64,000 bases of DNA from a plasmid. The DNA lies in the sequence record NZ_CP019224.1. One strand, given 5' to 3'. Both the position numbers and the translations under genes were made by a program. Numbering within the stretch: position 1 is the stretch's first letter; every line of letters starts with the position of its first letter. The notes below the pieces were generated by a model. The model was given only the letters and a program-made list of their open reading frames with translations, was not told the DNA's origin and did no database searches. Shown here in pieces: positions 46,901 to 64,000 of the stretch.

Positions 46901-48004
46901 GTGAGTGTTGCGGCGTTCGTGGCTGGGGTTGATCGGCTGCTGAGTCGCGGTCATGAGTTGTTCCCGGCCGGGGGGCCGGGTGGTGGGCAGGTGTTCGCCG
47001 CTGGGGGTCGGGTGCCGGTGCCGGAGGCCCCGGATGGCCACAGCGGTTTGACGGGTGGGGCTCGGGCCGCCGGTGGGGCGTATCAGCAGGCGCAGGCCGG
47101 TGCGGATGGTCTTGACGGGGACTCGGGGCAGGCGGTAGCCCAAGGTGGTGAGGTTGGTGCGCAGGGCCGCGCCGGGTCGGGGTTGATTCGGGATCAGGCC
47201 CGCGCGGTGGGTGCTGCGACCGCGGGGATGGGTCGTTCGCCGGCGGGCGCGAAGTTGATCATGGCGGCCATGGATGATCATTTGGCCGCGATGCAGCGTC
47301 AGTTGGATCAGACCACGGCCGAAAACCGGCTGTTGGCGATGCGGATGCGTCAGCTGGCGGCGGGCTATCGCGGTCTGGGTGCAGGTGGGATGGGCGGCGG
47401 TATGCCCCTGTCCGGGCTGGGCGGCTTGATGTCGGGCGGCGGCGGTGGCGGCGGCCTGAGCGGGTTAAGCGGCTTGGGGAGCGTGCCTGGAGGGTGGAGC
47501 CGTTTGGTGGGATCGGTCCGCGGGGGCCGGGGGCCGCGGAGCGAGGAAGCGGCGCCGCGCGGCGATGTGGGGACTGCGCTGGGCGGGTTGACGCAGGATT
47601 CGTCTCCGCGTGAAGTGGCTGCAGCGATCATCCATGAGGCTCGCCGGCGCGGCTACTCGCCGCACCAGACGATCGCGATCTTGTCTACGGCGATGCAAGA
47701 AAGCGGGTTGCGTCCTCGGGCTGTGAGTCCGAATGGGTTGTGGAGAAGCATTTTCCAGCAAGACTCGGGTTATCCGGGCCGCAATAATCCCAACACGGCG
47801 ATTTCGGGATTTTTCGATCGGCTGGCCCACCATGGCGGTCCGTCGTCACCGGACATTTGGAAGTCGATCTTCTGGTTACAGCAGCGCCCGGGCGATTCGT
47901 CGGCTGAGGCGGCAGTGGCGCACGGACGTAGGGGCTATTTGAACGAGATCCAGAGTCAGTTGCCCAGGGCGACGGCGTTGTATCGCAGCATCGCCGGAGT
48001 TTGA
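46901..48004 (+). CDS. modular ESX-adjacent protein, paralogue 2: N-domain plus SLT-like lytic transglycosylase C-domain
   Basis: C-terminal AILSTAMQESGLRPRAVSPNGLWRSIFQQDSGY matches the SLT family-1 signature (ES catalytic Glu ... AVSxxGAxGLMQ-like). Confidence 0.6.
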   Translation: MSVAAFVAGVDRLLSRGHELFPAGGPGGGQVFAAGGRVPVPEAPDGHSGLTGGARAAGGAYQQAQAGADGLDGDSGQAVAQGGEVGAQGRAGSGLIRDQARAVGAATAGMGRSPAGAKLIMAAMDDHLAAMQRQLDQTTAENRLLAMRMRQLAAGYRGLGAGGMGGGMPLSGLGGLMSGGGGGGGLSGLSGLGSVPGGWSRLVGSVRGGRGPRSEEAAPRGDVGTALGGLTQDSSPREVAAAIIHEARRRGYSPHQTIAILSTAMQESGLRPRAVSPNGLWRSIFQQDSGYPGRNNPNTAISGFFDRLAHHGGPSSPDIWKSIFWLQQRPGDSSAEAAVAHGRRGYLNEIQSQLPRATALYRSIAGV

Positions 48005-48089
48005 CCACCACCACCACAACGATGTACGAGGATGCTGCGAATTTTGCGTGGCTGTGGCCGGGGGGATTTGCTCGGGTTAATTTTGGTGG

Positions 48090-49130
48090 GTGAGTGTTGC
48101 GGCGTTCGTGGCTGGGGTTGATCGGCTGCTGAGTCGCGGTCATGAGTTGTTCCCGGCCGGGGGGCCGGGTGGTGGGCAGGTGTTCGCCGCTGGGGGTCGG
48201 GTGCCGGTGCCGGAGGCCCCGGATGGCGACAGCGGTTTGACGGGTGGGGCTCGGGCCGCCGGTGGGGCGTATCAGCAGGCGCAGGCCGGTGCGGATGGTC
48301 TTGACGGGGACTCGGGGCAGGCGGTGGCCCAAGGTGGTGAGGTTGGTGCGCAGGGCCGCGCCGGGTCGGGGTTGATTCGGGATCAGGCCCGCGCGGTGGG
48401 TGCTGCGACCGCGGGGATGGGTCGTTCGCCGGCGGGGGCGAAGTTGATTATGGCGGCCATGGATGATCATTTGGCCGCGATGCAGCGTCAGTTGGATCAG
48501 ACCACGGCCGAAAACCGGCTGTTGGCGATGCGGATGCGTCAGCTGGCGGCGGGCTATCGCGGTCTGGGTGCAGGTGGGATGGGCGGCGGTATGCCCCTGT
48601 CCGGGCTGGGCGGCTTGATGTCGGGCGGCGGCGGTGGCGGCGGCCTGAGCGGGTTGAGCGGCTTGGCGTCGGGGATACCGGCGTCACTGATGGGCAGCCT
48701 GAGTCGCGGCGGCGGTGAGAACGGGGGGCCGGGTGAGCAGTCGGGCGCTTCGCTTCTGGGCGGCGGTGGCAGTGGGACGGCGCTGCGGGCGGTGCAGTTC
48801 GCCGAGACCAAGTTGGGTGATCCGTACGTGTGGGGCGCGACAGGGCCGCGCCAATACGACTGCTCCGGGTTGGTGATGGACGCCTACCGGCACGCGGGGG
48901 TTCAGTTGCCGCGCATGACCTACGACATGATTCACAAAGGTATGACGGTGGATCGCGCTGAGGTGCGGGCCGGTGATCTGGTGTTTTCCAATTTCTCGAG
49001 CAGAGGGCCGGAGCATGTGCAGATGGCGGTGTCCTCGACGAAGGTCATTGAGGCGCCCACCCCGGGGGGCCACGTCCAGTATTCGGGCTTCCCGCGTGGG
49101 CATGTTGTCGTGAAAAGAATTGTCGGATAA
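48090..49130 (+). CDS. modular ESX-adjacent protein, paralogue 3: N-domain plus NlpC/P60 peptidase C-domain
   Basis: C-terminal YVWGATGPRQYDCSGLVMDAYRHAGVQLPR...GDLVFSNFSSRGPEHVQMAV with the NlpC/P60 Cys-His catalytic motifs. Confidence 0.7.
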   Translation: MSVAAFVAGVDRLLSRGHELFPAGGPGGGQVFAAGGRVPVPEAPDGDSGLTGGARAAGGAYQQAQAGADGLDGDSGQAVAQGGEVGAQGRAGSGLIRDQARAVGAATAGMGRSPAGAKLIMAAMDDHLAAMQRQLDQTTAENRLLAMRMRQLAAGYRGLGAGGMGGGMPLSGLGGLMSGGGGGGGLSGLSGLASGIPASLMGSLSRGGGENGGPGEQSGASLLGGGGSGTALRAVQFAETKLGDPYVWGATGPRQYDCSGLVMDAYRHAGVQLPRMTYDMIHKGMTVDRAEVRAGDLVFSNFSSRGPEHVQMAVSSTKVIEAPTPGGHVQYSGFPRGHVVVKRIVG

Positions 49131-49147
49131 CGATTTAACGGTGGGTA

Positions 49148-50689
49148 TTGACGGTGGTTGAGCCGGGAGTGGATAAGGACGACGAGTCGCGCTGGCGCGG
49201 GCGCGGTCTGGGGCTTTCGACGCGGGTACAGGTGTCGGGGCACATGTTTTTCGCCCGTCGCGCGGTGGCGGCGATGACTCGGCGGCGGGTGCGGATGGAG
49301 GCCGAGCCGGGCCGGCGCCAGTCGATGGCGATGTTGGCGGGTGTGACGCTGACCGCTGTGCTGTGTCTGGGGGCGTTGTTCTGGTCGTTTGTGCGCCCGG
49401 CCGGTTCGGCGGGGCAGGCGCGGATTGTGGCCGATCAGGATTCGGGGGCGCTGTATGTGCGGGTGGGCGAGAAGCTGTATCCGGCGTTGAATTTGTCCTC
49501 GGCGCGGTTGATCGCCGGGGAGGCGGCCAGCCCGGTTCGGGTGCGCCGCAGCGAGATTGACGCAGCGCCGCGCGGGCCGCTGGTCGGTATTGCCGGCGCC
49601 CCGCAGGATATGGTGGCGACGTCGCCGGGTCGCTCGTCGTGGTTGGTGTGTGATGAGATCACCAAGGCGTTCGGGGCGGCTGCGCCTGAGCCGGTGACGG
49701 TGACCGTCATCGACGGCCAGCCCGAGCTGGGTCCACGCCGCCACGTGCTGGGCCCTGATGATGCGATGGTGCGCCGCTATGGGGATGCGGTGTGGTTGAT
49801 CCGCGATGGGCGGCGCTCGTTGATCAATCAGGGTGCTCGGGCGGTGCTGTTGGCGTTGGGGCTGGGCGAGGATGCGGTGTTGGGGTCGCGCCCGATGAGC
49901 CGGGCCTTATTCGATGCGATCCCGGTGGGCCCGGAGTTGTCGGTGCCGGTGATCCCGAATGCGGGCTCGCCGGCACGGTTCGCGGGGGCGCCGGGCCCGG
50001 TGGGGACGGTGGTATCGACTCCGCAGGTGGGTGGGCAGACCGCGTATTCGGTGGTGCTCACCGATGGCGTGCAGCCGGTGTCGCCGGTGGTGGCTCAGGT
50101 GCTGCAAAATGCCGGGCCGGCCGGTGCGGTGATCCCGGTGGTGGCTGGCCCGGTGTTGGCGAAGTTGCCGGTGGTGCAAACCCTGGACTTGTCGGCGTTC
50201 CCGGCTACCCCGCCGCGGGTGATCGATAGCCAGGTCAACGCCGCGGCGTGCTGGCACTGGGAGAAGGTGAGCGGTGAGGCGCTGGCTAGCACGTCGGTCA
50301 TCGCCGGCCCGAGCATCCCGGTGGCCGAGGGCCAAGTGGACAAAGTGGTGGACTTGGTGAAAGCCCCGGGGCCACAGATGCAGGCCGACCGCGTGTATCT
50401 GGGCCCTGAGTACGCCAATTACGTGGTGTCCACCGGTAATTCGCCGTCAGCGGCCACGGTGGAGTCGTTGTGGTGGATATCCGAATCAGGGGTGCGGTTC
50501 GGGGTGCCGCGCCAGGAGGACACGATGAACGCTTTGGGTTTGAAGAAGCATTCCCCGAGCCCGGCGCCGTGGCTGGCGCTGCGGCTGCTGGCCGCCGGGC
50601 CGGCATTGTCGCGCTCTGATGCGCTGGTGCGTCACAACACGCTGCCTGTCGATGCCAACCCGGCCGAACTGGAGGTCCCGAAGTCATGA
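49148..50689 (+). CDS. eccB: ESX conserved component EccB
   Basis: GLSTRVQVSGHMFFARRAVAAMTRRRVRME and a TM segment. Immediately upstream of eccC, with stop overlapping the eccC ATG. Confidence 0.85.
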   Translation: MTVVEPGVDKDDESRWRGRGLGLSTRVQVSGHMFFARRAVAAMTRRRVRMEAEPGRRQSMAMLAGVTLTAVLCLGALFWSFVRPAGSAGQARIVADQDSGALYVRVGEKLYPALNLSSARLIAGEAASPVRVRRSEIDAAPRGPLVGIAGAPQDMVATSPGRSSWLVCDEITKAFGAAAPEPVTVTVIDGQPELGPRRHVLGPDDAMVRRYGDAVWLIRDGRRSLINQGARAVLLALGLGEDAVLGSRPMSRALFDAIPVGPELSVPVIPNAGSPARFAGAPGPVGTVVSTPQVGGQTAYSVVLTDGVQPVSPVVAQVLQNAGPAGAVIPVVAGPVLAKLPVVQTLDLSAFPATPPRVIDSQVNAAACWHWEKVSGEALASTSVIAGPSIPVAEGQVDKVVDLVKAPGPQMQADRVYLGPEYANYVVSTGNSPSAATVESLWWISESGVRFGVPRQEDTMNALGLKKHSPSPAPWLALRLLAAGPALSRSDALVRHNTLPVDANPAELEVPKS

Positions 50690-53600
50690 AGATTGGGTTC
50701 GCGCGCAAGCAAACTGCGCAGGCGCCGCCGTTTAAGCCTGAAACCCTTGACCTGCCGACTCCACTGAAAGTGCCGCCGCCACAAAGCAAACCGCTGTGGT
50801 CGGTGGCGTTGATCATCGGCCTGCTTGCGCTGTTCGGCGGAATGATGTGGATCAGCTTCGCCAGTGGTGCGCGCTCGTTTACCGGCGCGGGGTCATTTTT
50901 CCCGCTCCTGATGGTGGGCGGGCTGGTTGCGATGCTGTTCGGTGGCCGCGGCGGGTCGCAGGAGATGTCGCGCTCGAAGCTCGACGCGCTGCGGGCCCGG
51001 TTTTGCATGGTCATGGACGAGCTGCGAGGAACCACCTCAGAGTTGGCGGACCGGCTCGATCAGAATCACCGCTGGTATCACCCCGCACCGGGCACCCTGG
51101 AAGCGGCCGTGGGCAGTATGCGGATGTGGGAGCGCAAGCCCAACGGGTCTGATACATGGTTCGGGGTGGCCCGGGTCGGGGTGGGCATGACGGATCTGAT
51201 GGAATCCAATGCCGCCGTGTTCAACGAGCCGCAGGACGCGCCGACCGATATCGAGCTCGAACCGGTGACCGGCAAGGTCCTCCAAGAGTTCATGCAATAC
51301 CAGACGGTGGCCTACGGCACGCCGAAACTGGTGTCGCTGATGGTGGAGCCCGGCTATGAGCTACGCGGCCCGCGTGAGCGGGTGCTGGGCCTGATGCGCG
51401 CGATCCTGTGCGAATTGGTGTTTTTCCACGGCCCCGATCATCTGCGGCTGGTGGTGGTGACTTCTGATGCGGCCGAGTGGGATTGGGTGAAGTGGCTACC
51501 ACACGCCGGTGATCCGAAGCTCATTGACGGTGCGGGCCCGGTGCGCATGGTCTATGGGTCGGTCGCTGAGTTCCTTGACGCGCAAACTGAGGCAATGTCG
51601 CTGTCCACCCGCGGGGACTTCCGCTCGCGCCTGGGCGCGTCGAAGGACCCTATTGAGCCGTTGCCGCACACGGTGGTCGTGTGCGACACCGAAGCGGGAT
51701 GGGAGCGTCTCGGAAGCTCCGAAGGCGTCGCTGGGTTGACATTTTTCGACGTGCGCGGCCTAGGCCGCGTTCCGGCGTGCCGCGACGCGCGCCGGCGAGT
51801 GTTGTACATCGGTGAGAACGCTGTCATCTCGGCGGTGCCGCGCGACCCGATGACATGGGATCCGCAGGGGAACGATCCCCAGTTTTTCGCCTACGCCGAT
51901 CAGATGAGCCGCGATGAGGCCGAGACGTTCGCCGAGCGCATGGCGCGCTTCCGGCTCGCCGAGGCCTATGAGGCGATCGAAGTTGATTCCGGCAAGCAGG
52001 TGATGGCCCGAGACATCCTGTCGTACTACGGGATTGAGGACGCCGCCAATATTGATTTCGACAAGTTGTGGGGCCCGCGTAGTGACATCAACTCCCTGCA
52101 GCGGTTGAAGGTGCCACTGGGTAACCGGATGGACAACAATGAGCTGTTTTTCGTCGACATCAAGGAGGACTCGGAAGGGGGCCAGGGCCCGCACGGGGTG
52201 ATGGCCGGCACGACTGGCTCGGGCAAGACGACGATGCTGCGCGCCTTCATTGAGTCTCTGATGTTGGGGCACCCGCCGCAAAACCTGCAGTTCATGTTGG
52301 CCGACCTCAAGGGTGGCTCGGGTGTTCGGCCCTTTGCCGGGGTGCCTCACGTTTCGCAGATCATCACCGACCTCGAAGAGGACCAGGGTTTGATGACCCG
52401 TTTCATCGACGCGCTGGATGGCGAGATCGCGCGGCGCAAAGCCTTATGCGATGTGCCTGGCGCTGATGATGTGGGGGTATACAACAAGATCCGTGCCGAT
52501 CAGCTCGCAGCGGGGGCTGCTGAGGTGTTGCCGCCGCTGCCGGTACTGGTGGTGGTCATTGACGAGTTCGCCGAACTGTTTAAGTTGATGGGTCAAGAGA
52601 TTCAGGACTCGTTGTATCAGATCGCCCGCCAAGGCCGCGCGTATTGGATTCATCTGCTGATGGCCAGCCAGCAGATCGAAACTCGCGCTGAGAAGCTGCT
52701 AGAAAACGTGGGGTACCGGATGGCCCTGCAGACCAATACGACACAGTCAGCCACGGCGATCGGTGTGCCGAATGCGGTGAACCTCAAGGGTTCTGGGCAG
52801 TGCTATTTCTTGCAGGGCAGCCCCGCGAACGGCACGCTGACGAAATTTCAGGGCGAGTTCTTGTGGCGTGAGTACCGCAAGCCTGGCACGGAGGACCTCG
52901 ACGACGCGCCGCAAGTGAGCGCGGCGTCAGTGAGTTATTTTGCGCCGCAACTGTTCTCCACGGACTTCACACCGTTGCCGCCGCCTGATGAGCTCGACGA
53001 GTCGCCAGCTGTGGATGGGGAAGTGGCTGATGTCGACGAGGTGACCGACGCGGGCGATAGCGAGGACGCCGAGGAGCGCAATGCGTTGATGCGCCCACAG
53101 GTGGGGCGCATCATCATCGACCAGCTGCGCCGGATTGACTTTGAGCCTTACCGGTTGTGGAAGCCGCCGCTGGATGCGCCGTGGAGCATCGAGAAACTGG
53201 TGAACACCTATCTGGGGCGGCCCTGGGACAGCGACTATGCGCGCACCCCGAACCTGGTGTTCCCTGTGGGGCTGGTGGACCGGCCATTCAAGCATGACCA
53301 GCATCCGCTGACCATTGACGTGTCGGGCCCGGGCGGCAATGTGGTGATCGTGGGTGCTCAGGGCTCGGGCAAAACGACTGCGCTGCAAGACCTGATCTGC
53401 GCGGCGGCCATGACGCACACCCCTGAGCAGGTGCAGTTTTACTGCCTGGCGTTTTCGTCGGCGGCCCTCAGTAGTGTGTCGGGGCTACCGCATGTGGGTG
53501 GTGTGTCGATGTCGCTTGATAGTGACGGTGTGCGCCGCACCGTGGCGGAGATCGCGGCGTTGCTCGCCTCGCGCAAGCGCAGCTTCGAGGCGACCGGCGT

Positions 53601-54912
53601 GATGTCGATGGAGGTGTTTCGCCGCCGCAAGGCTGGGCGTGAGCCCGGGGCTGTGCCTGAGGACGGTTACGGCGATGTGTTCTTGGTGATCGACAACTAT
53701 GCGGCGATGGTTAGCGAATATGAGGCGCTCGTCGAAGACAAGGTGAACAGGATCATCAAAGAGGGGCCCACGTTCGGGATTCACGTGGTCGCCGCGGTGA
53801 CCAAGAACACCGATCTGCAGGTGACGGTGCGGGGTAACTTCGGGTCTCGGGTGGAGCTTCGTCTGGCCGACTTCAACGAAGCGACGCTGGTGGCTAAGGC
53901 GAGACTGGCCACGGCTGTGCCGGCGCGGCCAGGGCGCGGCATGATTGGGCAAAATTACGAACGCACCGGCGTAGACCCCGTGGGGTTGCACACGTTGATG
54001 GCGCGCCCGGCGCTGGAGTCCACCGCCGCGGAGGTGTTCGATTCACGCAGTGTCGCCGAGGCTGTCAGCCGCCAGGCCGGTAGGTTCAATCCTGCACGTA
54101 AGGTGCGCAGGCTGCCAGGGCGGGTTTCGCCGGCCGAGCTGGCGGCGACAGCCGCCACCGATGATCGCACCCCCACGTCGATCGTGTGGGCGCTCGACGA
54201 GACCGAACGGCCGGTGTTTTTGGCCAGTCAGCATCTGATCATCGCCGGGCAACCCAAGTGTGGGCGCACGACGGCGTGTGCAACATTGATGCGCGAGATT
54301 CGCAGGGTTTACGCCCCGGGCGCTGACGGCGCTACGGGGCCGGGGCTGGAAGAAACGGCCGACCGCCCCGCGGCCCAGGTGTGGCTCATTGATCCGCGCC
54401 GCCAGCTACTCAACGTGCTGGATAAGTCCTACGTGCAGCGTTTCGCCTCGACGCCGGACTCGGTCAAAGCGCGCATGGGCGAGCTGGCCGCGGTCCTTGC
54501 GCCGCGGCTGCCCAGCGACGATTTATCGGTCGATGACATCGGCCGGCGCCACTGGCAGGGTCCGGAAATCTTTTTGATCATCGACGATTCTGAGCGGTTG
54601 CCGGTCGGCTTCGACTCACCTCTGGGGGTGATCGAACGGTTCGTGCAGGCCGGCGACGACGTCGGGTTGCACATCATCTACACCCGCCAGTTCGCGGCGT
54701 TCATGGCGGGCCTGGGGGCCGACCCCGTGTTCAGGATGCTCAAGCAGGCCAGGGAGCCGGAGCTGATCATGGATTCCGACCCCGATCAAGGATTCGTGAA
54801 GGGCAAATGGAAAGGCCATTGGATGCCCAAGGGCCGCGGATTCTTGCTGAATACCGCCGAATCGGGCGAATCGGGAATTTATGTCCAAGTCGCTGACGCC
54901 GGCCTCGGATAG
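50686..54912 (+). CDS. eccC: ESX conserved component EccC: FtsK/SpoIIIE-type ATPase, single fused polypeptide with three ATPase domains (1408 aa)
   Basis: Two N-terminal TM helices. Walker A motifs GTTGSGKTT, GAQGSGKTT, and GQPKCGRTT. Confidence 0.9.
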   Translation: MKIGFARKQTAQAPPFKPETLDLPTPLKVPPPQSKPLWSVALIIGLLALFGGMMWISFASGARSFTGAGSFFPLLMVGGLVAMLFGGRGGSQEMSRSKLDALRARFCMVMDELRGTTSELADRLDQNHRWYHPAPGTLEAAVGSMRMWERKPNGSDTWFGVARVGVGMTDLMESNAAVFNEPQDAPTDIELEPVTGKVLQEFMQYQTVAYGTPKLVSLMVEPGYELRGPRERVLGLMRAILCELVFFHGPDHLRLVVVTSDAAEWDWVKWLPHAGDPKLIDGAGPVRMVYGSVAEFLDAQTEAMSLSTRGDFRSRLGASKDPIEPLPHTVVVCDTEAGWERLGSSEGVAGLTFFDVRGLGRVPACRDARRRVLYIGENAVISAVPRDPMTWDPQGNDPQFFAYADQMSRDEAETFAERMARFRLAEAYEAIEVDSGKQVMARDILSYYGIEDAANIDFDKLWGPRSDINSLQRLKVPLGNRMDNNELFFVDIKEDSEGGQGPHGVMAGTTGSGKTTMLRAFIESLMLGHPPQNLQFMLADLKGGSGVRPFAGVPHVSQIITDLEEDQGLMTRFIDALDGEIARRKALCDVPGADDVGVYNKIRADQLAAGAAEVLPPLPVLVVVIDEFAELFKLMGQEIQDSLYQIARQGRAYWIHLLMASQQIETRAEKLLENVGYRMALQTNTTQSATAIGVPNAVNLKGSGQCYFLQGSPANGTLTKFQGEFLWREYRKPGTEDLDDAPQVSAASVSYFAPQLFSTDFTPLPPPDELDESPAVDGEVADVDEVTDAGDSEDAEERNALMRPQVGRIIIDQLRRIDFEPYRLWKPPLDAPWSIEKLVNTYLGRPWDSDYARTPNLVFPVGLVDRPFKHDQHPLTIDVSGPGGNVVIVGAQGSGKTTALQDLICAAAMTHTPEQVQFYCLAFSSAALSSVSGLPHVGGVSMSLDSDGVRRTVAEIAALLASRKRSFEATGVMSMEVFRRRKAGREPGAVPEDGYGDVFLVIDNYAAMVSEYEALVEDKVNRIIKEGPTFGIHVVAAVTKNTDLQVTVRGNFGSRVELRLADFNEATLVAKARLATAVPARPGRGMIGQNYERTGVDPVGLHTLMARPALESTAAEVFDSRSVAEAVSRQAGRFNPARKVRRLPGRVSPAELAATAATDDRTPTSIVWALDETERPVFLASQHLIIAGQPKCGRTTACATLMREIRRVYAPGADGATGPGLEETADRPAAQVWLIDPRRQLLNVLDKSYVQRFASTPDSVKARMGELAAVLAPRLPSDDLSVDDIGRRHWQGPEIFLIIDDSERLPVGFDSPLGVIERFVQAGDDVGLHIIYTRQFAAFMAGLGADPVFRMLKQAREPELIMDSDPDQGFVKGKWKGHWMPKGRGFLLNTAESGESGIYVQVADAGLG

Positions 54913-55005
54913 ATCTGCGATGGGCCGCGCGTAAGCCCGCGGGCGTCGATACACTTTTGTCATCAGACCGGTCAATGTCCGGTCGGCTCTTTACGGGAGG
55001 GTTCC

Positions 55006-55302
55006 ATGTTTGTCGAGGCATTACCTGCGGGCATTGATGCATCCGCGTCCGGGTTGGCCGGGATCGGGGCGGCGGTAGCGGCGGGCAACGCCGCAGGAGC
55101 CGCACCCACACTGGGCGTGGTGCCGCCGGCGCCAGAGCCGGCGTCGGTTCTGTTGGCCGCGGCGTTCGGCACCCATGCCGGCGTGTATCAGGCCACCCAA
55201 GCCATCGGGGAGGTCGTCCACCAGATGTTCGTCTCGACCATGGGCATCAGCTCGGCCGACTACGCCGCCACCGAGGTCCTCAACACCGCTGCGATGGTCT
55301 AG
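55006..55302 (+). CDS. PE-family protein (98 aa)
   Basis: MFVEALPAGIDASASGLAGIG... with C-terminal YxxxE (ADYAATEV). Confidence 0.8.
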   Translation: MFVEALPAGIDASASGLAGIGAAVAAGNAAGAAPTLGVVPPAPEPASVLLAAAFGTHAGVYQATQAIGEVVHQMFVSTMGISSADYAATEVLNTAAMV

Positions 55303-55331
55303 GTCTAGCCCGCGGGTTAGCGCCCACAGCC

Positions 55332-56486
55332 ATGGATTACGAGCTGCCACCTGAGATCAACTCGGGCCGCATGTATGCCGGCCTGGGTTCAGCGTCTCTG
55401 ATGGAATCAGCCGCCGCATGGCAGGCACTGGCCGCGCAGCTCGGGTCCGCAGGAGCGGCGTTTGGGGCGGTGATCGAAGCGCTGACCAGCACGGCGTGGG
55501 CGGGGCCCTCGTCGATGTCGATGGCGCTGTCGGCAGCCCCGTACGTGGTGTGGATGATCGAGACGGCCGCGCAATGCCAGGAAGCCGCCGCGGCCGCGGC
55601 GGCGGCCGCGGCGGCGTTCGAGGCTGCCCGGGCCGGGGTGGTGCCCCCACCGGTGATCGCCGAGAACCGGGCGCAGCTGGCGGCCCTGGTGTCGACGAAC
55701 TTCATGGGGTTCAACACTCCGGCGATCATGGCCAACGAGGCTCACTACGGTCAGATGTGGTCCCAAGACACCGCGACGATGTACGACTTCGCCGGGAATG
55801 CCTCGGGGATCACCGGCGCGCTGGTCCCGTTCGTGCCGCCAGCGCCCAACTCGGACCCGATCGGGTTGGCCGCGCAAGCGGCCGCGTTGGGCCAGTCGGG
55901 CGGCACCGCCGCCGGGCAGCAGCCGTTCAATTTCGCCAGCAGCGCGGGAAGCATGCCGGCGGGTTTGGACGGCGAATCCATGTTGTCGATGGGCCCGCAG
56001 CTGGTGAGCACGATTCCCCAAGCGCTGCAAGGGCTCTCGTCACCGCTGAGCCAGGGGTTGGGGGGCAGCGGTCTGGGCCAATTCAATTCGCTGCTGAGCC
56101 CGTTTATGAGTTTTATGAATCCGGGCATGTTCGGTGGGGGCACTGCGTCGACCTTGACCAGTGCGACCGGGCCCGGACTTGCGGGGATGGGCGGGGCAGC
56201 CTCGGAGGTGGAGGCCGTGGCGGGCCGCGCGGGATCGCTGGGCGGGTTGTCGGTGCCGGCAACCTGGACGGCCGGCGCCAGCGGGGAGTCGGCTAGTACG
56301 GCGCGGGCGGTCGCACCGGTGGCCGCCTCGGGCGGGGGCACGTCGATGGGGGCTGCACCGGCCACCACCGGGGGCTCCGGCATGTATGGGGGCACGCCGA
56401 TGGCCGCGGGTATGCACGGGCGCGGCACGGACAGCGACGGCTCACCTCGCTATGGAAAACCCGTCAAAGTGCTACGCCGACGTTAG
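55332..56486 (+). CDS. PPE-family protein (384 aa)
   Basis: MDYELPPEINSGRMYAGLGSASLMESAAAWQALAAQLGSA and a Gly/Ala/Ser-rich C-terminus. Confidence 0.85.
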   Translation: MDYELPPEINSGRMYAGLGSASLMESAAAWQALAAQLGSAGAAFGAVIEALTSTAWAGPSSMSMALSAAPYVVWMIETAAQCQEAAAAAAAAAAAFEAARAGVVPPPVIAENRAQLAALVSTNFMGFNTPAIMANEAHYGQMWSQDTATMYDFAGNASGITGALVPFVPPAPNSDPIGLAAQAAALGQSGGTAAGQQPFNFASSAGSMPAGLDGESMLSMGPQLVSTIPQALQGLSSPLSQGLGGSGLGQFNSLLSPFMSFMNPGMFGGGTASTLTSATGPGLAGMGGAASEVEAVAGRAGSLGGLSVPATWTAGASGESASTARAVAPVAASGGGTSMGAAPATTGGSGMYGGTPMAAGMHGRGTDSDGSPRYGKPVKVLRRR

Positions 56487-56599
56487 CGCCGAATTGGTGA
56501 CATCATGTGCACGGAAAAATTCGTTCAAATAGCTTGCGCCGGCCGTTGCCCGGCGTTAGATCGGGCCAATAGACTGGCAACACAGCAACGCTGAAATAA

Positions 56600-56926
<327 letters not shown>

Positions 56927-56970
56927 CCGCCAGGTCCCTACCCACTTTTACGCCAAGGAGACGTACAACC

Positions 56971-57255
56971 ATGTCGATCAACTATCAGTTCGGCGACGTC
57001 GACGCCCACGGCGCCCTGATCCGCGCCCAGGCCGCTTCCCTGGAAGCCGAGCACCAAGCGATCGTGCGCGATGTGCTCGCGGCCGGGGATTTTTGGGGTG
57101 GCGCCGGGTCGGTCGCCTGCCAGGAGTTCATCACCCAGTTGGGCCGCAACTTCCAGGTGATCTACGAGCAGGCCAACGCTCACGGACAGAAGGTGCAGAC
57201 CGCCGGAAGCAACATGAACAGCACCGACAGCGCCGTCGGATCTTCGTGGGCCTAG
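56971..57255 (+). CDS. esxN: WXG100 protein, EsxN (Mtb9.9) family (94 aa)
   Basis: MSINYQFGDVDAHGALIRAQAASLEAEHQAIVRDVLAAGDFWGGAGSVACQEFITQLGRNFQVIYEQANAHGQKVQ...SAVGSSWA. RBS AAGGAGA. Confidence 0.85.
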   Translation: MSINYQFGDVDAHGALIRAQAASLEAEHQAIVRDVLAAGDFWGGAGSVACQEFITQLGRNFQVIYEQANAHGQKVQTAGSNMNSTDSAVGSSWA

Positions 57256-57333
57256 CCCGCACTGTTCCAGCCAACGACGTGGCGGCACCGGATTCGGTGC
57301 CGCCACGTCAGCGTTTGAGCAAGGAAACCTGCT

Positions 57334-58254
57334 ATGACGAGCGCCGAAATTCCGGCCACCCCGACTTCTGACATCACCGTCAACCTCGAGGGACTGTGGC
57401 TGCTGCAAGCCATGCTGGGCATTCCCCAGCTCGCCCCCGAACTGCGCGGACGCCCCTACGGACAACCACGAAACACCGACTGGCTCACCGCGCACCCGGG
57501 TTTGGCGGTGCTGGTCGACCAAGGCATCGCCGATGAGGATGCGATGGTGCGTGCTGATATCGCCGCGCGCATGAAGGTGCTGGCCGCGCCCGACGTTGAA
57601 GTCATCTTGCTGGTCTGCCGCGGGGCGATGAACGTGGTGACACCGGTGGTGATGGATGATCCCACTACCTGGCGCGCGATCCCCGATGAGCAGCTGCGCG
57701 TTGTGCTGGCCCGCCGCGACGGCCGGTGGGCCTCTGCGGTGCGCGCCGGGTCCTACGTCACCATTGACGACTGTCCGGGCACCGACCAGGAATGGGTGCA
57801 ACGCCTAGTCTTTGAAGCTCTGGACTCGGTGCACTGGGTGGAGCCGGCGCGGATCAGCGCGGTCAACGTGCCGCTGGATGACATGCGTACCGCGATCACG
57901 TTGCACGCCAAGGCGGGCTCGGCAGCAGCGAAAATGGCTGCGCTGCGCGCACTGGGGCTGCGCGGGGGTGCGCTGGCTGAGCTGGGCGCGGCGTTAGAAG
58001 ATCCCCAAGCTGAGGCGTTGGTTTATGCGCGCGCCCATGTGGATGCCGACACGGTGTGGAGCGAAACGGTGCTCAACCTGCGCGACACTGCCTCGGGGCG
58101 GGTGGCGCTGTACCGACTGAACCCGCCCGCGGGCAGCCAGCAGGAGTGGCTGGCCATCGCCCCGGCGGGTCCTGCCCAGCTGCATCACGCGCTGACGACG
58201 GTCTTCGACAGTGTCGGTGTGCGCGCCTGGGACAGTCATGAACGAATGGCCTGA
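57334..58254 (+). CDS. espG: EspG, ESX PE/PPE-specific chaperone (306 aa)
   Basis: Conserved position after the esx pair. N-terminal TSDITVNLEGLWLLQAMLGIPQLAPELRGRPYGQ is typical of EspG. Confidence 0.7.
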   Translation: MTSAEIPATPTSDITVNLEGLWLLQAMLGIPQLAPELRGRPYGQPRNTDWLTAHPGLAVLVDQGIADEDAMVRADIAARMKVLAAPDVEVILLVCRGAMNVVTPVVMDDPTTWRAIPDEQLRVVLARRDGRWASAVRAGSYVTIDDCPGTDQEWVQRLVFEALDSVHWVEPARISAVNVPLDDMRTAITLHAKAGSAAAKMAALRALGLRGGALAELGAALEDPQAEALVYARAHVDADTVWSETVLNLRDTASGRVALYRLNPPAGSQQEWLAIAPAGPAQLHHALTTVFDSVGVRAWDSHERMA

Positions 58255-58374
58255 CAAAAAGCGGTACCGCCGTGCCAGCAAAGTGTTCTCGATGAATACC
58301 GAGCGGGCGTGGTATAGCGAGAATTCTGCCTTTAGGATCGGACATAGTAACCGCCAGCCATATGGGGACTAGGA

Positions 58375-59847
58375 ATGACTGACAATTCGGACTTCATGTC
58401 GCGTTATCTGCCGCCGGAAAACAGCGAGCAACAGCGCGAGCATCCGGCGCCTGCCGAGGATGCCACCGAGGAGGTGTCGTTGGCTGATGTGCGGGTGCCC
58501 GAGCCGGGTGCGCCGCCGCCACCTCACATGCCGCCGGTGGGTGGCTACGAGTTCGGGCCACCGCCAGCCGAGGGGAACCGCCACGAGGCGTGGCCCGCGG
58601 CGCCGGGGGGCACTGAAGGTGCTCATGCTCAGGCCGAACCGGCACCACCGCCGCCGCCGGGTGCGGGGCCCTCGTTCGGGCCGCCGCCGCCGGGCGGGCA
58701 TCCCCATGCTGTGCCGCGGCCCCCGGCGCCTCGGGCACCGGACGCGGAGCCGTCAGTTGGGCGCGGCCCGGGAGGGCAGGCGCCCGACCCGATCCCGCCG
58801 CGCCCGCAGTTCGATCAGCGCAACCCGCCGCCGCCGCCGCGGTGGTCACCCCCGCGTGTGGACCCTAAGCAACGGTGGGCGCCGCGGCCAGACCTTCGCA
58901 CTCCCAGCTCGGCACCGACCCGGCATGTCCAGGTCGAGGAGGTCGTGAAACGGCGCCGCGAACCGGCGAAAATGGGGTGGCGCAAGGCGGTTCACGCCTG
59001 CACAGGTGGGCTGGTCAATCTGGGTGCGGGTGCTCATGAGCGTCAACTGATCGACTGGAAGTCTCGTGTGGCTTCCAACATTCCCGGCACGTATCAGATC
59101 GCGGCGATTTCGATCAAAGGCGGCGTCGGCAAGACGCGGGTGACTGCCGGTGTGGGCACCGTGTTCGCCTTTGAGCGTGGGCAGCCGGTCTTGGCGATCG
59201 ACGCCGACACCACCTACGGGGGCCTGGGTCGCTTCGTTGATCGCGAGGCGCTGAACTCGATTGGCGATCTGCTTGCGGCCAAGGAGGTGGTTGTCGACTA
59301 TCCCAAGGCTCGTCACTACACCGGGAAGAACCCCCAGGGCCTAGAAGTGTTGCCGGGCAACCAGAATGTGGCCAACCCGATGGACCTGGACAAGGACGTG
59401 TTCTACGACACCGCTGAGCTGACGCGGCGCTTTTACCAACTGACACTGGTGGATTGCGGCGCCGAAGTCGAGACCGAATTTTTCAAAACAGTGTTGTCGA
59501 ACACCGACGCGTTGATGATCATCGGCAGCTGCAACGCCGAGGGCGGACTGGCGATCGAGACCACGGTGGAGTGGCTGGCCGCACGCAACGGTCACGAACT
59601 GCTCAAGCGCTCGGTGATTGTGCTCAACGACATCCATGACTGCGCGTCCAAGGCGTTTATCTCCCATATCACCGAGACGCTGGGGCCGCGGGTGCGTTCG
59701 GTGAAGACGATCCCATGGGATGCGCATTTGCGCGACGCGGATACGCTCGATTTTCCGGCCTTGCACAAGCGCACTCGGTTGGCGTTTTTGGAGCTGGCGG
59801 CCGAGCTGGCCGAAGGGTTCCCGACCGCGGGGGCGCTGAGCGCGTGA
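58375..59847 (+). CDS. EspI-like ESX-associated protein: Pro-rich N-terminal half plus C-terminal ParA/MinD-like ATPase domain (490 aa)
   Basis: About 200 aa Pro-rich. Then IAAISIKGGVGKTRVTAGVG (deviant Walker A) ... LAIDADTTYGGL ... TLVDCGA. Confidence 0.6.
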   Translation: MTDNSDFMSRYLPPENSEQQREHPAPAEDATEEVSLADVRVPEPGAPPPPHMPPVGGYEFGPPPAEGNRHEAWPAAPGGTEGAHAQAEPAPPPPPGAGPSFGPPPPGGHPHAVPRPPAPRAPDAEPSVGRGPGGQAPDPIPPRPQFDQRNPPPPPRWSPPRVDPKQRWAPRPDLRTPSSAPTRHVQVEEVVKRRREPAKMGWRKAVHACTGGLVNLGAGAHERQLIDWKSRVASNIPGTYQIAAISIKGGVGKTRVTAGVGTVFAFERGQPVLAIDADTTYGGLGRFVDREALNSIGDLLAAKEVVVDYPKARHYTGKNPQGLEVLPGNQNVANPMDLDKDVFYDTAELTRRFYQLTLVDCGAEVETEFFKTVLSNTDALMIIGSCNAEGGLAIETTVEWLAARNGHELLKRSVIVLNDIHDCASKAFISHITETLGPRVRSVKTIPWDAHLRDADTLDFPALHKRTRLAFLELAAELAEGFPTAGALSA

Positions 59848-61358
59848 CCCTCGAGCGGCAGCACGACAACCCTGTCACGGCGGCGGCTGCGCCGGCCCTG
59901 CCTGATCGGGTGTTGGTGGCGGTCATCGCGGGGGCCACCAAGATCGGGGTGGTGTTGGATGCCACCGCCTCAGTGTCAGTGCAGTTGGCGGCGCTGGTGG
60001 ATCTGGTCAACACTCGACTCGGTGAACTGGGGGAGCCGGCGTTGACGGCAGGCCCGCGGGGCCGCTGGACACTGTGCTGGGTCGATGGCAGCCCCCTGAA
60101 GCCAGGCCTGTCTTTGGCCGCCCAAGGGGTCAGCGACGGCACCCGGTTGTGGCTGCGGTTCGCCGCCGACACCGAGGCCCGGATCAACGTCGTCGAACAC
60201 GTCACCTCGGCGGTGGCCGCTGAGCTGAGCAGACGCTGGCCTGCTGTCACGCCGGTGTGGGCGGCGCGCGTCGGCGCGGGCATGGTGGTGGCCGGCGTGC
60301 TGGCCGCCACGGCCCTGCTGGGGCGTTGGCGTTACGGGCATCTGGGCTGGGCGCCGGCCATCTATTGTGGCGGGCTGGCGGCGCTGCTGCTGGCGGCGGC
60401 GGCGATCATCTTGGCGCGCCAAGCCAGTCGGCTGGCGCGCGGCGTCGGTGACACGCTGTTGTTGACCGGATGCCTCCCGTTGGCGGTGGGGGCTGCTGCT
60501 GCGGTACCGGGGCCGATGGGTGCCCCGCACGCCGCGTTGGGATTGGCGAGCGCGTTGGTCGCCGCGGTGCTGGTAGTGCGGTTCACCGGCCGCCATATCG
60601 CGTTGGGCACGACGGTGATCGTCACTGCGGCAGTCGGTGTTGTGGTGGGTTCGGTGCGTATGGTGCTGGTGACCTCGGCGCCGATCCTGTTGGCGGTCGT
60701 GCTGCTGGTGTCGCTGATCGGGATGCATGTGTCGCCCACCGTGGCGCGCTGGGTGGCCGGGATTCGGCTGCCGGTCTTCCCTTCAGCGTCGGGCCAGTGG
60801 ATTTTTGAGGCGCGTCCGGATTTGCCGGCTGATCATGCGGTGGCCAGCGGTCAGGTGGCCACGTTCGCCGGGCCTGAGTCGGTGCGTGAGGTGACGGTGG
60901 CCACCGACCGGGCCCACTCCTATCTGACCGGGTTGCTGGTTGCGACAACAGGTTTGGTGGTGGTGTGCAGCGTCGGGTTGTGCGATCCGCATGCGCCGCG
61001 ACGCTGGCTGCCGCTGGTGTTGGCGGGGCTGGTGGCGGTCGCGGTGCTGCTGCGCGGCCGTTCGTTCACCGATCGCTGGCAGGCGACGATCTTCGCGCTG
61101 GCCGCCGTGGCATTGGTGATCGGGGTGGCCGGGCGCTATGTGTTGGGGTTGTGGACGATGCCGGCATTGCTGGCGGGGGTATCGGCGATGGTGGCCGTCC
61201 CGGTGGCTGGCTTGGTGGCCGGTGTGGTGGTGCCCAACCGCTTCTACACTCCGACGTTCCGCAAGATCGTCGAGTGGGTCGAATATGTCTGCCTGACAGG
61301 CATTTTCCCGTTGGCGTTTTGGCTGATGGGTGTGCTGGCCGCGATCCGGTACCGATAG
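59844..61358 (+). CDS. eccD: ESX conserved component EccD, polytopic membrane protein (about 11 TM)
   Basis: GTG 59844 overlaps the upstream stop. Ubiquitin-like N-terminus RVLVAVIAGATKIGVVLDA, then an Ala/Leu/Val-rich multi-TM region. Confidence 0.8.
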   Translation: MTLERQHDNPVTAAAAPALPDRVLVAVIAGATKIGVVLDATASVSVQLAALVDLVNTRLGELGEPALTAGPRGRWTLCWVDGSPLKPGLSLAAQGVSDGTRLWLRFAADTEARINVVEHVTSAVAAELSRRWPAVTPVWAARVGAGMVVAGVLAATALLGRWRYGHLGWAPAIYCGGLAALLLAAAAIILARQASRLARGVGDTLLLTGCLPLAVGAAAAVPGPMGAPHAALGLASALVAAVLVVRFTGRHIALGTTVIVTAAVGVVVGSVRMVLVTSAPILLAVVLLVSLIGMHVSPTVARWVAGIRLPVFPSASGQWIFEARPDLPADHAVASGQVATFAGPESVREVTVATDRAHSYLTGLLVATTGLVVVCSVGLCDPHAPRRWLPLVLAGLVAVAVLLRGRSFTDRWQATIFALAAVALVIGVAGRYVLGLWTMPALLAGVSAMVAVPVAGLVAGVVVPNRFYTPTFRKIVEWVEYVCLTGIFPLAFWLMGVLAAIRYR

Positions 61359-61374
61359 CGGGGGTGGTTGTTCG

Positions 61375-63075
61375 GTGAGTCGTGCACAAAAGGCCTGTGC
61401 GGCGGTATCGGCTGTCGCCGTGGTGGGGTTGACCGGGTTGTGGGGCGCCCCGGCTGCGGGGGCGGTGGAGCCCCCGCAGATTGATGTGGGCGCAACTCCG
61501 CCCGATGGGCCGCCGGGTCCGGATCAACCGATGCGCCAGGGCGCGTTTTGCCCGAAGGTGGGCACGCTGCCGGGTACGGACTATCGGGTGCAGCCGCATT
61601 ACATGGACATGCTGGATTTGGCTGAGGCGTGGCGGTTTGGGCGCGGGGCGGGGCAGAAGGTGGCTGTGATCGACACCGGCGTCACCCCGCATCCGCGGCT
61701 GACCGACCTTGTCGGTGGCGGCGACTATGTGATGCCCGGCGATGGCTTGTCCGACTGTGATGCTCACGGGATGATCGTGGCCTCACTGATCGCGGCCCAG
61801 CCCGCCGATGGCAAGACGCCGCTGCCCCCGCCGCGCCAGGCCCGCCGTCCTGAGACAGTGCCCACCACCGAGGCGCCGCCGCCCCCGCCGCCACCGCAGA
61901 CCGTGACGGTGCAGCTGCCGCCCCCGCCTCCGCCTCCACCCCCAGACGGGGCGAGCTGGCATCCTCGCGCGACTCCCACGGTGGTGGTGCCCGCCGGTCA
62001 CCCGAAACTATCCCCGCAGAGTCCCGCGCCTGGTCCTGATGATCCGGTGCCACCCGCGCCGCCTGGCCCGCCGGAGCCCCCGCCGCCGCCGGCGCCGGCT
62101 GCGGACGGGTTTTCTGGTGTGGCCCCTGATGTGCAGGTCATCTCCATCCGGCAAAGCTCAAAAGCGTTCTCTCCCAAGGACGCTTTCGCAGGCAACCAAG
62201 ACCCGGCGACCCGGCGCAAGGCGGGCGATATCCGCACGATGGCTCGTGCGATCGTGCATGCGGCCAACATGGGTGCCACGGTGATCAACATTTCGGAGGT
62301 GTCGTGTATGAGCGCGACCGACATGATTGATCAGCGCGACTTGGGCGCGGCGATTCACTACGCGGCCGTGGACCGCAACGCGGTGATCGTGGCCGCGGCC
62401 GGCAATGTCGGCAACGAAAGCGCTGCCATGGGCAACGACTGTAAACAGAATCCGATCTATAACCCGTTGAATCCCAACGATCCTCGCGATTGGGCGGGAG
62501 TGACCACGGTCGTTACTCCGGCGTGGTTTTCCGACTATGTGCTCACCGTCGGCGAGGTGGATGCCACCGGCGCTCCGCTGGACGGCAGCGTGGCCGGACC
62601 CTGGGTGTCGATCGCGGCGCCAGGCACTGACATCGAAAGCCTCTCACCGCGCGATGACGGGCTGATGAACGCGGTCGAGGGCAGCAAGAACACGCTGGTG
62701 CCGCAGTCGGGCACCTCGTTTTCGGCGGCGATCGTATCCGGCGTGGCCGCCCTGGTGCGCGCGAAGTATCCGCAGCTGACCGCCCATCAGGTGATCAACC
62801 GGCTGCTCTCAACCGCCCGGGCACCGGCGCGCGGGGTGGATAACCAGGTCGGGCACGGCATCGTCGACCCGGTAGCCGCCCTGACCTATGACCTGCCCCC
62901 CGGTGAACCTGTTGGGCCGCAACACCTGGCGGCACCCCTTGTGCTGGCCCCGCCCAAGGTGGGCCGCGACATGACCCCCGTGTGGGTAGCCGCCGCTGGT
63001 GTGGGCGGACTGGCGCTGGTGTGTTCGCTGGTGCTGGGCTCAGCAGCGCTGATGCGGCGACGAGGAGCGCGGTGA
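61375..63075 (+). CDS. mycP: mycosin MycP, subtilisin-like serine protease, membrane-anchored
   Basis: Signal peptide. Asp region VAVIDTGV, His region DCDAHGM, Ser region GTSFSAA. C-terminal TM anchor WVAAAGVGGLALVCSLVLG. Pro-rich insert. Confidence 0.85.
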   Translation: MSRAQKACAAVSAVAVVGLTGLWGAPAAGAVEPPQIDVGATPPDGPPGPDQPMRQGAFCPKVGTLPGTDYRVQPHYMDMLDLAEAWRFGRGAGQKVAVIDTGVTPHPRLTDLVGGGDYVMPGDGLSDCDAHGMIVASLIAAQPADGKTPLPPPRQARRPETVPTTEAPPPPPPPQTVTVQLPPPPPPPPPDGASWHPRATPTVVVPAGHPKLSPQSPAPGPDDPVPPAPPGPPEPPPPPAPAADGFSGVAPDVQVISIRQSSKAFSPKDAFAGNQDPATRRKAGDIRTMARAIVHAANMGATVINISEVSCMSATDMIDQRDLGAAIHYAAVDRNAVIVAAAGNVGNESAAMGNDCKQNPIYNPLNPNDPRDWAGVTTVVTPAWFSDYVLTVGEVDATGAPLDGSVAGPWVSIAAPGTDIESLSPRDDGLMNAVEGSKNTLVPQSGTSFSAAIVSGVAALVRAKYPQLTAHQVINRLLSTARAPARGVDNQVGHGIVDPVAALTYDLPPGEPVGPQHLAAPLVLAPPKVGRDMTPVWVAAAGVGGLALVCSLVLGSAALMRRRGAR

Positions 63076-64000
63076 TGAGGACGACCTTTCCGTTAAGCGT
63101 GGCGGCCGGCTGGCCGCGCCTGGTGGCGCTGTTCGTCGTCGACGTCGCATTAGTGGCCACCGGGGCGGCCGTGGCGGGCCGCCCGGGCTGGTGGGCCGGC
63201 GCCGCGCTCGCCCTTGTGGTGTCGCTGCTGGCGTTGCTGCGTTGGCGCGGTGCAGCACTGTTGACGCTGGCGTGGCGATCGGTGAGCAAACGGCACGTAG
63301 CTGATCTGCCGGGCGGTGAGCTGGCCGACTACGAGCGCCACTTCGGCTCAGGGCGGGTCGGAATCCGTGCTGTGGGGCCACATTTGGTAGCGGTGGTGGC
63401 CGTCGATGGGCCACCACACAGTCCCTCGGCGCTCGATTATTCCCGGGTCGAGTCGATGACGAAGCTGCCGCTTGAGGCGGTGGCCGCCGGGCTGGAGCAG
63501 TTCGATGTCACCTTAGAAGGCATCGACATCGTCAGCGCGGGGGTGCGCCGGGCATCCAAAAGCCACCACCCGTATGCCCCGGTGTATTCAGGGGCGGTGG
63601 GTGATCATCCCGCGGTCGGGCAGCGCCGCACCTGGCTGGTCGTGCGCCTGGACGCGCTGGCCAGTGCGCGGGCGATCGTGTGGCGCGAGTCGGTGGCGGC
63701 CACGATGAGCGCGGCCGCCGAATGGCTGGCCGCAGAACTGACCAGCCTGCGTATCCCGGCGCGGGTGTTGACCGCGGCCCAGATCCGCTCGGCCGATGAG
63801 GCGCTGCTGGCCGGGATCGACCCGAACGGATTGACGCCAGGGTGGAGCCGGCTGCGTCACGCCGGCGGTTACGTGCAGACCTATTGGATGTCGCCACGCG
63901 ACATTTCGAGCACCACGATTGACCGGCTGTGGGCGCCGGAGACCGCTGCCACGGTGGTGTCGATCCAGGTGCGCCGCGCCGATACCGGCGCTACGGCCGT
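63075..64000 (+). CDS. eccE: ESX conserved component EccE, N-terminal part; continues beyond the window
   Basis: ATG overlaps the mycP stop. Two N-terminal TM helices LVALFVVDVALVATGAAVAG and WAGAALALVVSLLALL. Position after mycP. Confidence 0.7.
   Translation, partial: MRTTFPLSVAAGWPRLVALFVVDVALVATGAAVAGRPGWWAGAALALVVSLLALLRWRGAALLTLAWRSVSKRHVADLPGGELADYERHFGSGRVGIRAVGPHLVAVVAVDGPPHSPSALDYSRVESMTKLPLEAVAAGLEQFDVTLEGIDIVSAGVRRASKSHHPYAPVYSGAVGDHPAVGQRRTWLVVRLDALASARAIVWRESVAATMSAAAEWLAAELTSLRIPARVLTAAQIRSADEALLAGIDPNGLTPGWSRLRHAGGYVQTYWMSPRDISSTTIDRLWAPETAATVVSIQVRRADTGATA

Follow-up and report, generated by a model that had tools for sequence, protein, structure and literature searches.

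An ESX-P1-type secretion cluster of the pMyong1/pRAW plasmid family in plasmid sequence NZ_CP019224.1

The window analysed here is a 64,000-nucleotide stretch of plasmid sequence record NZ_CP019224.1, and its last part carries a mycobacterial type VII secretion (ESX) locus. This locus is very probably the ESX-P1 cluster of a plasmid of the pMyong1/pRAW family, which belongs to slow-growing mycobacteria. It has the gene content and intact functional motifs of an ESX system, is nearly identical to known plasmids, and occupies a plasmid clade that is sister to chromosomal ESX-5. The evidence supports a plasmid-borne ESX-P system that is related to chromosomal ESX-5 yet stands outside that group. 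The cluster has already been described in the literature, and its recognition in the window is correct but ordinary.

Plasmid identity

The ESX region is 98.4% identical in DNA to pMyong1 (M. intracellulare subsp. yongonense 05-1390, NC_020275.1 / JQ657805) over 100% of the region's length, a divergence of ~1.6%. EccB of the two plasmids is 99.4% identical, EccC ~100%, and both Esx proteins 100%. Plasmids of the pMAH135 type (M. avium and M. intracellulare) and the pRAW type (M. marinum) match the region at 80.7–82.6% over 98%. The ESX-P1 locus of pRAW itself (M. marinum E11, HG917973) has ~81% DNA identity, with 88% for EccB, 87% for EccD, and 95/93% for EsxM/N.

The whole 64-kb window is collinear with pMyong1, and its remaining 49 kb align at ~92% identity over 67–81% of their length. 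The pMyong1 stretch that matches this backbone is annotated with ParA, ParB, toprim, integrase, and toxin-antitoxin genes. The backbone of pRAW, by comparison, is largely unlike, with 15–22% of the rest of the window matching. The last 16.7 kb of the window (47334–64000) are 99.95–100% identical to five NCBI contigs of 55–108 kb wherever these overlap it, one of which is CP045076.1 (108,496 bp), with 99.95% identity. Public assemblies contain the exact EspG protein in 601 blocks, on contigs of no more than 200 kb in every case, and the longest record read was 108,496 bp. Collinearity with pMyong1 and the occurrence of the exact EspG solely on contigs of this size identify the locus as plasmid-carried.

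A plasmid-to-chromosome migration in progress, with all or part of an ESX-P1 plasmid inserted in a chromosome, has a very small probability. An ESX-P1-type locus inside a 5-Mb M. interjectum scaffold (L008, NZ_LT546237.1, 963895–984176) and the TnpB and IS256 transposase genes that closely precede the window's ESX locus would fit such an event. However, the window is plasmid backbone throughout with no chromosomal flank, and all exact copies lie on plasmid-sized contigs. The M. interjectum locus was also rejected as evidence of integration, as its 550-nt run of N and misjoined fragments make it most likely a scaffolding artefact. In this scaffold, a PPE fragment lies within the ATPase gene and an EccE fragment lies within mycP.

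Phylogeny of the secretion machinery

Neighbour-joining trees with 200 bootstraps were built for EccD, EspG, EccB, and MycP, with three other plasmid ESX types (L088–L090) as outgroups. Chromosomal ESX-5 is monophyletic at 99–100% in all four trees. The plasmid clade containing the window is its sister at 82–96%, again in every tree, and comprises the pRAW family, a M. paragordonae plasmid, and the fast-grower plasmids of Mycolicibacterium crocinum and M. rufum. The window and pMyong1 group together at 100%, and the pRAW-family group that includes the window, with pRAW in the same clade in all four trees, also has 100% support. The core proteins are sister to the chromosomal ESX-5 clade. A position inside that clade, which the original prediction had named as the outcome that would count against it, was not obtained. 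With the 98.4% identity to pMyong1, this position bears out the proposed match to plasmid ESX-P systems.

The fast-grower plasmids of M. crocinum (CP092363) and M. rufum (CP092428) have the same gene order as the window, including the MinD/ParA and NlpC/P60 genes, and form the sister group of the slow-grower plasmids in the machinery trees. They differ in sequence, with EccB 59–62% and EccD 49–51% identical. Their Esx pair is 51–55% identical and is not of the EsxM/N type.

A chromosomal ESX-5 locus of a slow-growing mycobacterium, or a variant of one, has next to no probability as an identity for this cluster. Such a locus would account for core proteins that score best against ESX-5 chains in the Protein Data Bank (PDB), for an Esx pair 89–98% identical to chromosomal EsxM/EsxN, and for a single-chain EccC as in ESX-5. 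It is nevertheless refuted by the trees, in which the 99–100% chromosomal clade excludes the window, and by the collinearity with a plasmid. The machinery is merely 33–70% identical to the chromosomal one, and the window has an espI-type gene and lacks the P450 and extra PE/PPE genes. Moreover, the near-identical matches to the window's tail sit on the contigs of 55–108 kb, and the exact EspG never occurs on a contig above 200 kb.

Published descriptions of the cluster

ESX-P1 was defined on five pRAW-like plasmids, pMyong1 included, and was found most similar to ESX-5 in sequence with the gene order of ESX-2 (Ummels 2014, PMC4173767). Another survey assigned pMyong1 to ESX-P5, treated as an outgroup of ESX-5 and proposed as its progenitor (Newton-Foot 2016, PMC4791881). 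In that survey, the plasmid clusters carry espG and espI, and ESX-5 carries espG only, together with cyp143, multiple PE/PPE genes, and a gene for ferredoxin. With the M. yongonense plasmid among its members, ESX-P cluster 1 roots ESX-5 at 100% bootstrap, and RDP4 showed no recombination between chromosomal and plasmid ESX (Dumas 2016, PMC4779608). ESX-5 has also been related to plasmid loci of slow and fast growers, with virB4, tcpC, and espI as core genes of ESX plasmids (Mortimer 2017, PMC5381665). ESX-P1 (Ummels 2014), ESX-P cluster 1 (Dumas 2016), and ESX-P5 (Newton-Foot 2016) are the same system.

The window therefore adds little, as the cluster and its interpretation were published in 2014–2017 with pMyong1 among the plasmids analysed. 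Its value is that of a correctly identified case of the plasmid ESX systems from which chromosomal ESX-5 is believed to have arisen. ESX-5 exports most PE/PPE proteins in pathogenic mycobacteria. Plasmids of the ESX-P1 type move between clinical non-tuberculous species.

Gene content

All genes from eccB to eccE lie on the + strand, are intact except for eccE, which the window end truncates, and score above curated NCBIfam/Pfam thresholds. Together with intact Walker A motifs, mycosin triad, and WxG motifs, these scores establish a mycobacterial type VII locus. The open reading frames and family thresholds confirm each gene that the original prediction listed, at its position and on its strand. 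The predicted extent of 49148–64000 stands for the genes inside it and falls short at both ends: the locus begins upstream with the hydrolase genes and continues past the window end. By the published locus definition, the genes at 46901–48004 and 48090–49130 belong to it. The features are as follows.

46901–48004, +, first accessory gene upstream of eccB: 157-amino-acid (aa) N-terminal module, C-terminal part without a significant family match
48090–49130, +, NlpC/P60 (C40) peptidoglycan hydrolase gene: Pfam NLPC_P60, 71 bits
49148–50689, +, eccB, 513 aa: TIGR03919 466 bits, PF05108 479 bits
50686–54912, +, eccC, single 1408-aa FtsK/SpoIIIE-type ATPase: EccCa model 627 bits, EccCb model 545 bits
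55006–55302, +, PE, 98 aa, the only PE of the locus: PF00934 65 bits
55332–56486, +, PPE, 384 aa, PPE-SVP type, the only PPE of the locus: PF00823 187 bits, PF12484
56630–56926, +, EsxM-type (QILSS family) WXG100 gene, 98 aa: PF06013 71.5 bits
56971–57255, +, EsxN-type (Mtb9.9 family) WXG100 gene, 94 aa: PF06013 58 bits
57334–58254, +, espG chaperone gene, 306 aa: PF14011 90 bits
58375–59847, +, espI-type MinD/ParA ATPase gene, 490 aa: CbiA and MinD models at residues 242–479
59844–61358, +, eccD, 504 aa, YukD-like plus multi-pass membrane domain: TIGR03920 299 bits, PF08817, PF19053
61420–63075, +, mycP mycosin gene, 551 aa: TIGR03921 363 bits
63075–64000, +, eccE, first 308 codons, cut by the window end: PF11203 68 bits

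The start of eccD is adopted from the pMyong1 annotation. For mycP, the codon-position guanine-cytosine pattern of a coding frame is missing from the 90 nt that precede 61420. The PE protein carries its YxxxE motif as YAATE at residue 86. Both Esx proteins carry WxG motifs, and the EsxM-type protein has a WSG motif, the YxxxE motif YEQQE, and the C-terminus QQILSS. EccC contains the Walker A motifs GTTGSGKT and GAQGSGKT and two N-terminal transmembrane-like segments, while MycP contains the Asp/His/Ser triad and a C-terminal transmembrane segment.

The window follows the ESX-P1 order (hydrolase genes, eccB, eccC, PE, PPE, esx, esx, espG, MinD/ParA, eccD, mycP, eccE, eccA) as far as the truncated eccE, and the near-identical contigs complete it. 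Directly past the window end, these contigs, 99.99–100% identical to the window, carry the full eccE (530 aa) followed by eccA (610 aa), in agreement with the observation that eccA is absent from the window. The gene order in pRAW and pMyong1 is the same. An Rfam scan of the whole window returned no match.

Comparison of the core machinery with ESX-5

Among solved structures, every core protein (EccB, EccC, EccD, MycP, and EspG) scores best against ESX-5 chains. EccB reaches 595–639 bits with EccB5, 324 with EccB3, and 161 with EccB1, and EccD reaches 464–504 bits with EccD5. MycP scores 639 bits against Mycosin-5 (7NP7) and ~314–362 against MycP3 and MycP1. For EspG, the solved relatives found are EspG5 chains only, at ~247 bits.

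EccC residues 1–1404 align to residues 1–1386 of the single-chain EccC5 in 7NP7 with 1578 bits. EccC5 is a single chain of 1391 aa in M. tuberculosis (7NP7) and 1392 aa in M. xenopi (7B9F), and these chains align end to end with the protein of the window. The fused 1408-aa eccC of the original prediction is indeed one open reading frame matching both the EccCa and EccCb models. The accompanying claim that chromosomal ESX-5 has a split EccC is wrong, and because chromosomal EccC5 is a single chain, the fused EccC is an ESX-5-like feature and not a mixed one. In two of the other plasmid ESX types compared, from a M. riyadhense plasmid (L089) and M. chelonae pMchErm55 (L090), eccC is split into genes of ~390 aa and ~1000 aa. 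EccC of ESX-1 is split into 747 and 591 aa, with a different break point.

MycP carries a proline-rich insertion of ~100 aa at residues ~130–235. Mycosin-5 of M. tuberculosis (585 aa, 7NP7) spans this insertion in one alignment, and the alignments of MycP1 and MycP3 are broken in two. ESX-5 and ESX-P1 thus have the long loop in common.

A scan of species-representative genomes with the window's EsxN-type protein yielded 80 loci. In ~30 of these, the esx pair is followed by espG and eccD, and 19 were classed as complete ESX-5-linked pairs. Four of the 80 are ESX-P1-type loci with the ATPase gene (L008, L011, L012, and L019). Against the ESX-5-linked chromosomal loci, the window shows identities of 43–46% for EspG, 44–50% for EccD, 53–70% for MycP, 33–40% for EccE, and ~48–53% for EccC (partial). 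EccB is 60–62% identical to chromosomal EccB5 proteins among the 120 closest matches listed, all of which are ESX-5- or ESX-P1-like.

Chromosomal ESX-5 is the closest chromosomal paralogue of every core part of the cluster. Like the plasmid cluster, it has a single EccC, a proline-rich loop in MycP, substrates of the EsxM/N type, and an eccA gene at its downstream border. It differs in its 33–70% identical machinery, in its separate monophyletic clade, and in its layout, with its own P450 and several PE/PPE genes between eccC and esxM and no espI-type gene between espG and eccD. In M. tuberculosis, the locus is Rv1782–Rv1798. The ATPase gene is absent from all ESX-5-linked chromosomal loci scanned. 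In one chromosomal example (L035), a P450 gene, two PE genes, and PPE-domain open reading frames consistent with two PPE genes lie between eccC and esxM, and less than 0.35 kb separates espG from eccD. This example and the published survey (Newton-Foot 2016, PMC4791881) agree with the predicted chromosomal layout of a cyp143-type P450 and several PE/PPE genes.

The window departs from this layout, with one PE gene, one PPE gene, no P450 gene, and a 490-aa MinD/ParA gene, while its EsxM/EsxN-type substrates and single-chain EccC are as in chromosomal ESX-5. The mixed character first ascribed to the locus accordingly holds for the single PE/PPE set without P450 and for the ATPase gene before eccD, differences that earlier papers had both described, and fails for the fused EccC.

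The EspI-type ATPase

The gene between espG and eccD encodes a MinD/ParA ATPase with a proline-rich N-terminus. Its first half is 22% proline, and the C-terminal half forms a MinD/ParA (CbiA) domain, whose Walker A motif (KGGVGKT) lies at residue 248. Its closest solved relatives are MinD proteins. These results agree with the proline-rich ParA-like ATPase of the original prediction, which had also been published earlier. The protein has the features of an EspI-type ATPase: a proline-rich N-terminus, a MinD/ParA domain with KGGxxK[ST], and a gene before eccD.

In pRAW, the ATPase is annotated at its full length (497 aa), and seven other plasmid ESX loci have a gene of this architecture before eccD. 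An alignment of eight plasmid ESX loci displays a proline-rich N-terminal half, a conserved GWRK motif, and the Walker A, A′, and B motifs. In these eight loci, the ATPase gene is always directly upstream of eccD. Chromosomal ESX-2 (Rv3888c) and ESX-1 (EspI/Rv3876) likewise have a MinD/ParA-type gene directly before eccD. The sequence similarity of ESX-P1 is reported to be highest to ESX-5, not to ESX-2 or ESX-1 (Ummels 2014, PMC4173767).

The espI name of the plasmid ATPase is an assignment that follows Ummels 2014, Newton-Foot 2016, and Mortimer 2017, and the gene is best regarded as a putative espI. Speculatively, the proline-rich MinD/ParA protein could correspond to EspI on the plasmid and may tune secretion to the ATP available.

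In the RefSeq annotation of pMyong1, the MinD/ParA gene starts 570 nt late, which omits the proline-rich N-terminal 190 aa (L001 15228–15797, corresponding to window positions 58375–58944). As a result, pMyong1 has only the C-terminal 300 aa of the ATPase annotated, whereas pRAW and other plasmids have the long form (441–618 aa).

The Esx pair

The Esx substrates are highly conserved between plasmid and chromosome, with 86–98% identity across slow-grower plasmids and chromosomal ESX-5. EsxN is 95–98% and EsxM 89–96% identical to the pairs in chromosomal ESX-5 loci of other slow-growing species, values that, along with the QQILSS C-terminus, uphold the predicted EsxM/EsxN-type substrates. Identity to the M. 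tuberculosis proteins is presumably ~93% for EsxN and ~87% for EsxM. The family names QILSS and Mtb9.9 are from PMC3254194.

In a tree of concatenated EsxM and EsxN, the pairs from slow-grower plasmids cluster with those of chromosomal ESX-5 at 99% bootstrap and are 86–94% identical to them. The pairs of the M. crocinum and M. rufum plasmids are 51–55% identical to the slow-grower plasmid and chromosomal groups alike.

At the nucleotide level, high identity (80–90%) is limited to the two esx coding sequences, and the 44-nt spacer and flanks fall to 33–58%. The esxM–esxN spacer is 43–58% identical between plasmid and chromosome. Synonymous divergence (dS) of the esx pair is 0.6–1.0, which is near saturation and similar to that of neighbouring genes. 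The ratio of nonsynonymous to synonymous divergence (dN/dS) is 0.03–0.13 for the pair and 0.24–0.78 for other genes. A nucleotide tree separates the esx pairs of the pRAW family from the chromosomal ones. As a source of the 95–98% identity to chromosomal EsxN, recent gene conversion is not supported: the confinement of identity to the coding sequences, the diverged spacer, the dS values, and the nucleotide tree argue against it.

An older exchange would make the locus a mosaic, in which ESX-P1 machinery had its esx pair replaced long ago by a chromosomal ESX-5-type esxM/esxN, or the reverse. The clustering of slow-grower plasmid pairs with chromosomal ones points in this direction, as do the distant Esx pairs of the fast-grower plasmids, which are sister in the machinery trees, and the confinement of the effect to the two esx coding sequences, with PE, PPE, and EspG unaffected. 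However, such a replacement is unlikely. The high identity ends at each coding-sequence border, the nucleotide tree separates pRAW-family from chromosomal pairs, and RDP4 detected no chromosomal–plasmid ESX recombination (Dumas 2016, PMC4779608). Synonymous divergence near that of the neighbours, combined with low dN/dS, also fits strong purifying selection without transfer.

Overall, three accounts fit the Esx pattern: intense purifying selection, an exchange of the pair long ago, or a problem with the rooting of the machinery trees. A wider proposal has a low probability: plasmid and chromosomal Esx pairs may be interchangeable, which would imply cross-talk between the systems, or the pair may have been exchanged early in the slow-grower lineage. 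Neither interchangeability nor early exchange was found in the ESX-plasmid literature examined. Near-frozen EsxM/N in plasmid and chromosome, with diverged machinery, is a point that may merit a specialist's look.

Proposed function and conjugation genes

By homology to solved ESX-5 complexes, EccB, EccC, EccD, and EccE would build the inner-membrane translocon, with MycP attached as a stabilising component. The single EccC ATPase is predicted to power export and to recognise the C-terminal tail of the EsxM-type partner in the EsxM/EsxN dimer, and EspG would chaperone the PE/PPE pair. EccA, encoded just past the window end, is by homology the putative cytosolic AAA+ partner. The upstream NlpC/P60-type hydrolases probably open peptidoglycan.

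In pMyong1, eccA is followed immediately by genes for a 1005-aa AAA_10 (VirB4-like) ATPase, TcpC, and a VirD4/TraG coupling protein (T4SS-DNA_transf). The near-identical contigs extend only to the 689–704-aa gene that precedes virB4 in pMyong1. The original prediction had proposed a check for eccA and VirB4/TcpC-type genes beyond 64 kb, and both are present in the closest relatives, with eccA also in the near-identical contigs. For this molecule itself, eccA, the type IV genes, and a relaxase gene are predicted from pMyong1 and from the near-identical contigs, which reach just 10 kb beyond the window.

Both eccC-P1 and the virB4 homologue are essential for conjugation of pRAW (Ummels 2014, PMC4173767). 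Judging from the pRAW experiments, the plasmid would need ESX-P1, along with the neighbouring VirB4/TcpC/VirD4 type IV-like genes, for its conjugal transfer. In this process, ESX-P1 may serve adhesion or contact, or it may form part of the mating channel.

Several points weigh against the identification of the locus as an ESX-P1 cluster outside ESX-5. The machinery trees are neighbour-joining trees rooted with plasmid ESX types rather than with chromosomal ESX-1 to ESX-4, and the topology of the Esx pair conflicts with them. The role in conjugation was demonstrated in pRAW, at ~81% DNA identity, and not in the window's plasmid. The window contains no eccA, type IV, or relaxase gene.

Upstream hydrolase genes and plasmid context

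Two NlpC/P60-type genes are counted at the start of esx-P1 (Ummels 2014, PMC4173767). In pMyong1 and pRAW, the gene at the position of 48090–49130 is annotated as a C40 family peptidase. The first 157 aa encoded at 46901–48004 are 99% identical to those of this neighbour. For the genes at 45863–46837 and 46901–48004, a Pfam search at E up to 1 gave nothing above threshold, and the sub-threshold match of the latter was to a phage tail lysozyme.

Three tandem genes on the + strand (45863–46837, 46901–48004, and 48090–49130) have an N-terminal module of ~157 aa in common. The module is 99% identical between the second and third genes, including ~45 nt 5′ of the start codon, and the first gene has ~79% DNA identity within it. 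The C-terminal parts differ, with NlpC/P60 in the third gene, a sub-threshold lysozyme-like match in the second, and no match in the first. Near-identical assemblies vary here through deletions between the tandem repeats. The arrangement looks like a common module, for delivery or anchoring, joined to cell-wall enzymes that vary from gene to gene.

The interval that separates the plasmid backbone from the ESX locus contains a 579-aa TnpB/OrfB_IS605-type gene (41090–42829, −) and an IS256 (Mutator family) transposase gene (43442–44797, +). The counterpart of this interval in pMyong1 differs: it carries a gene for a VapB antitoxin, and no transposase is annotated in it.

Another small module, whose genes resemble those of type VII substrates, occupies 21450–25416 (+). 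Its products are a 506-aa DUF4226 protein and a protein of 613 aa that matches the PE and PPE domains weakly. In pMyong1, a small gene annotated as a "type VII secretion target" lies between the DUF4226 gene and the PE/PPE-like gene. On most of the ESX plasmids compared, genes for DUF4226 and PPE-domain proteins likewise lie upstream of the ESX locus.

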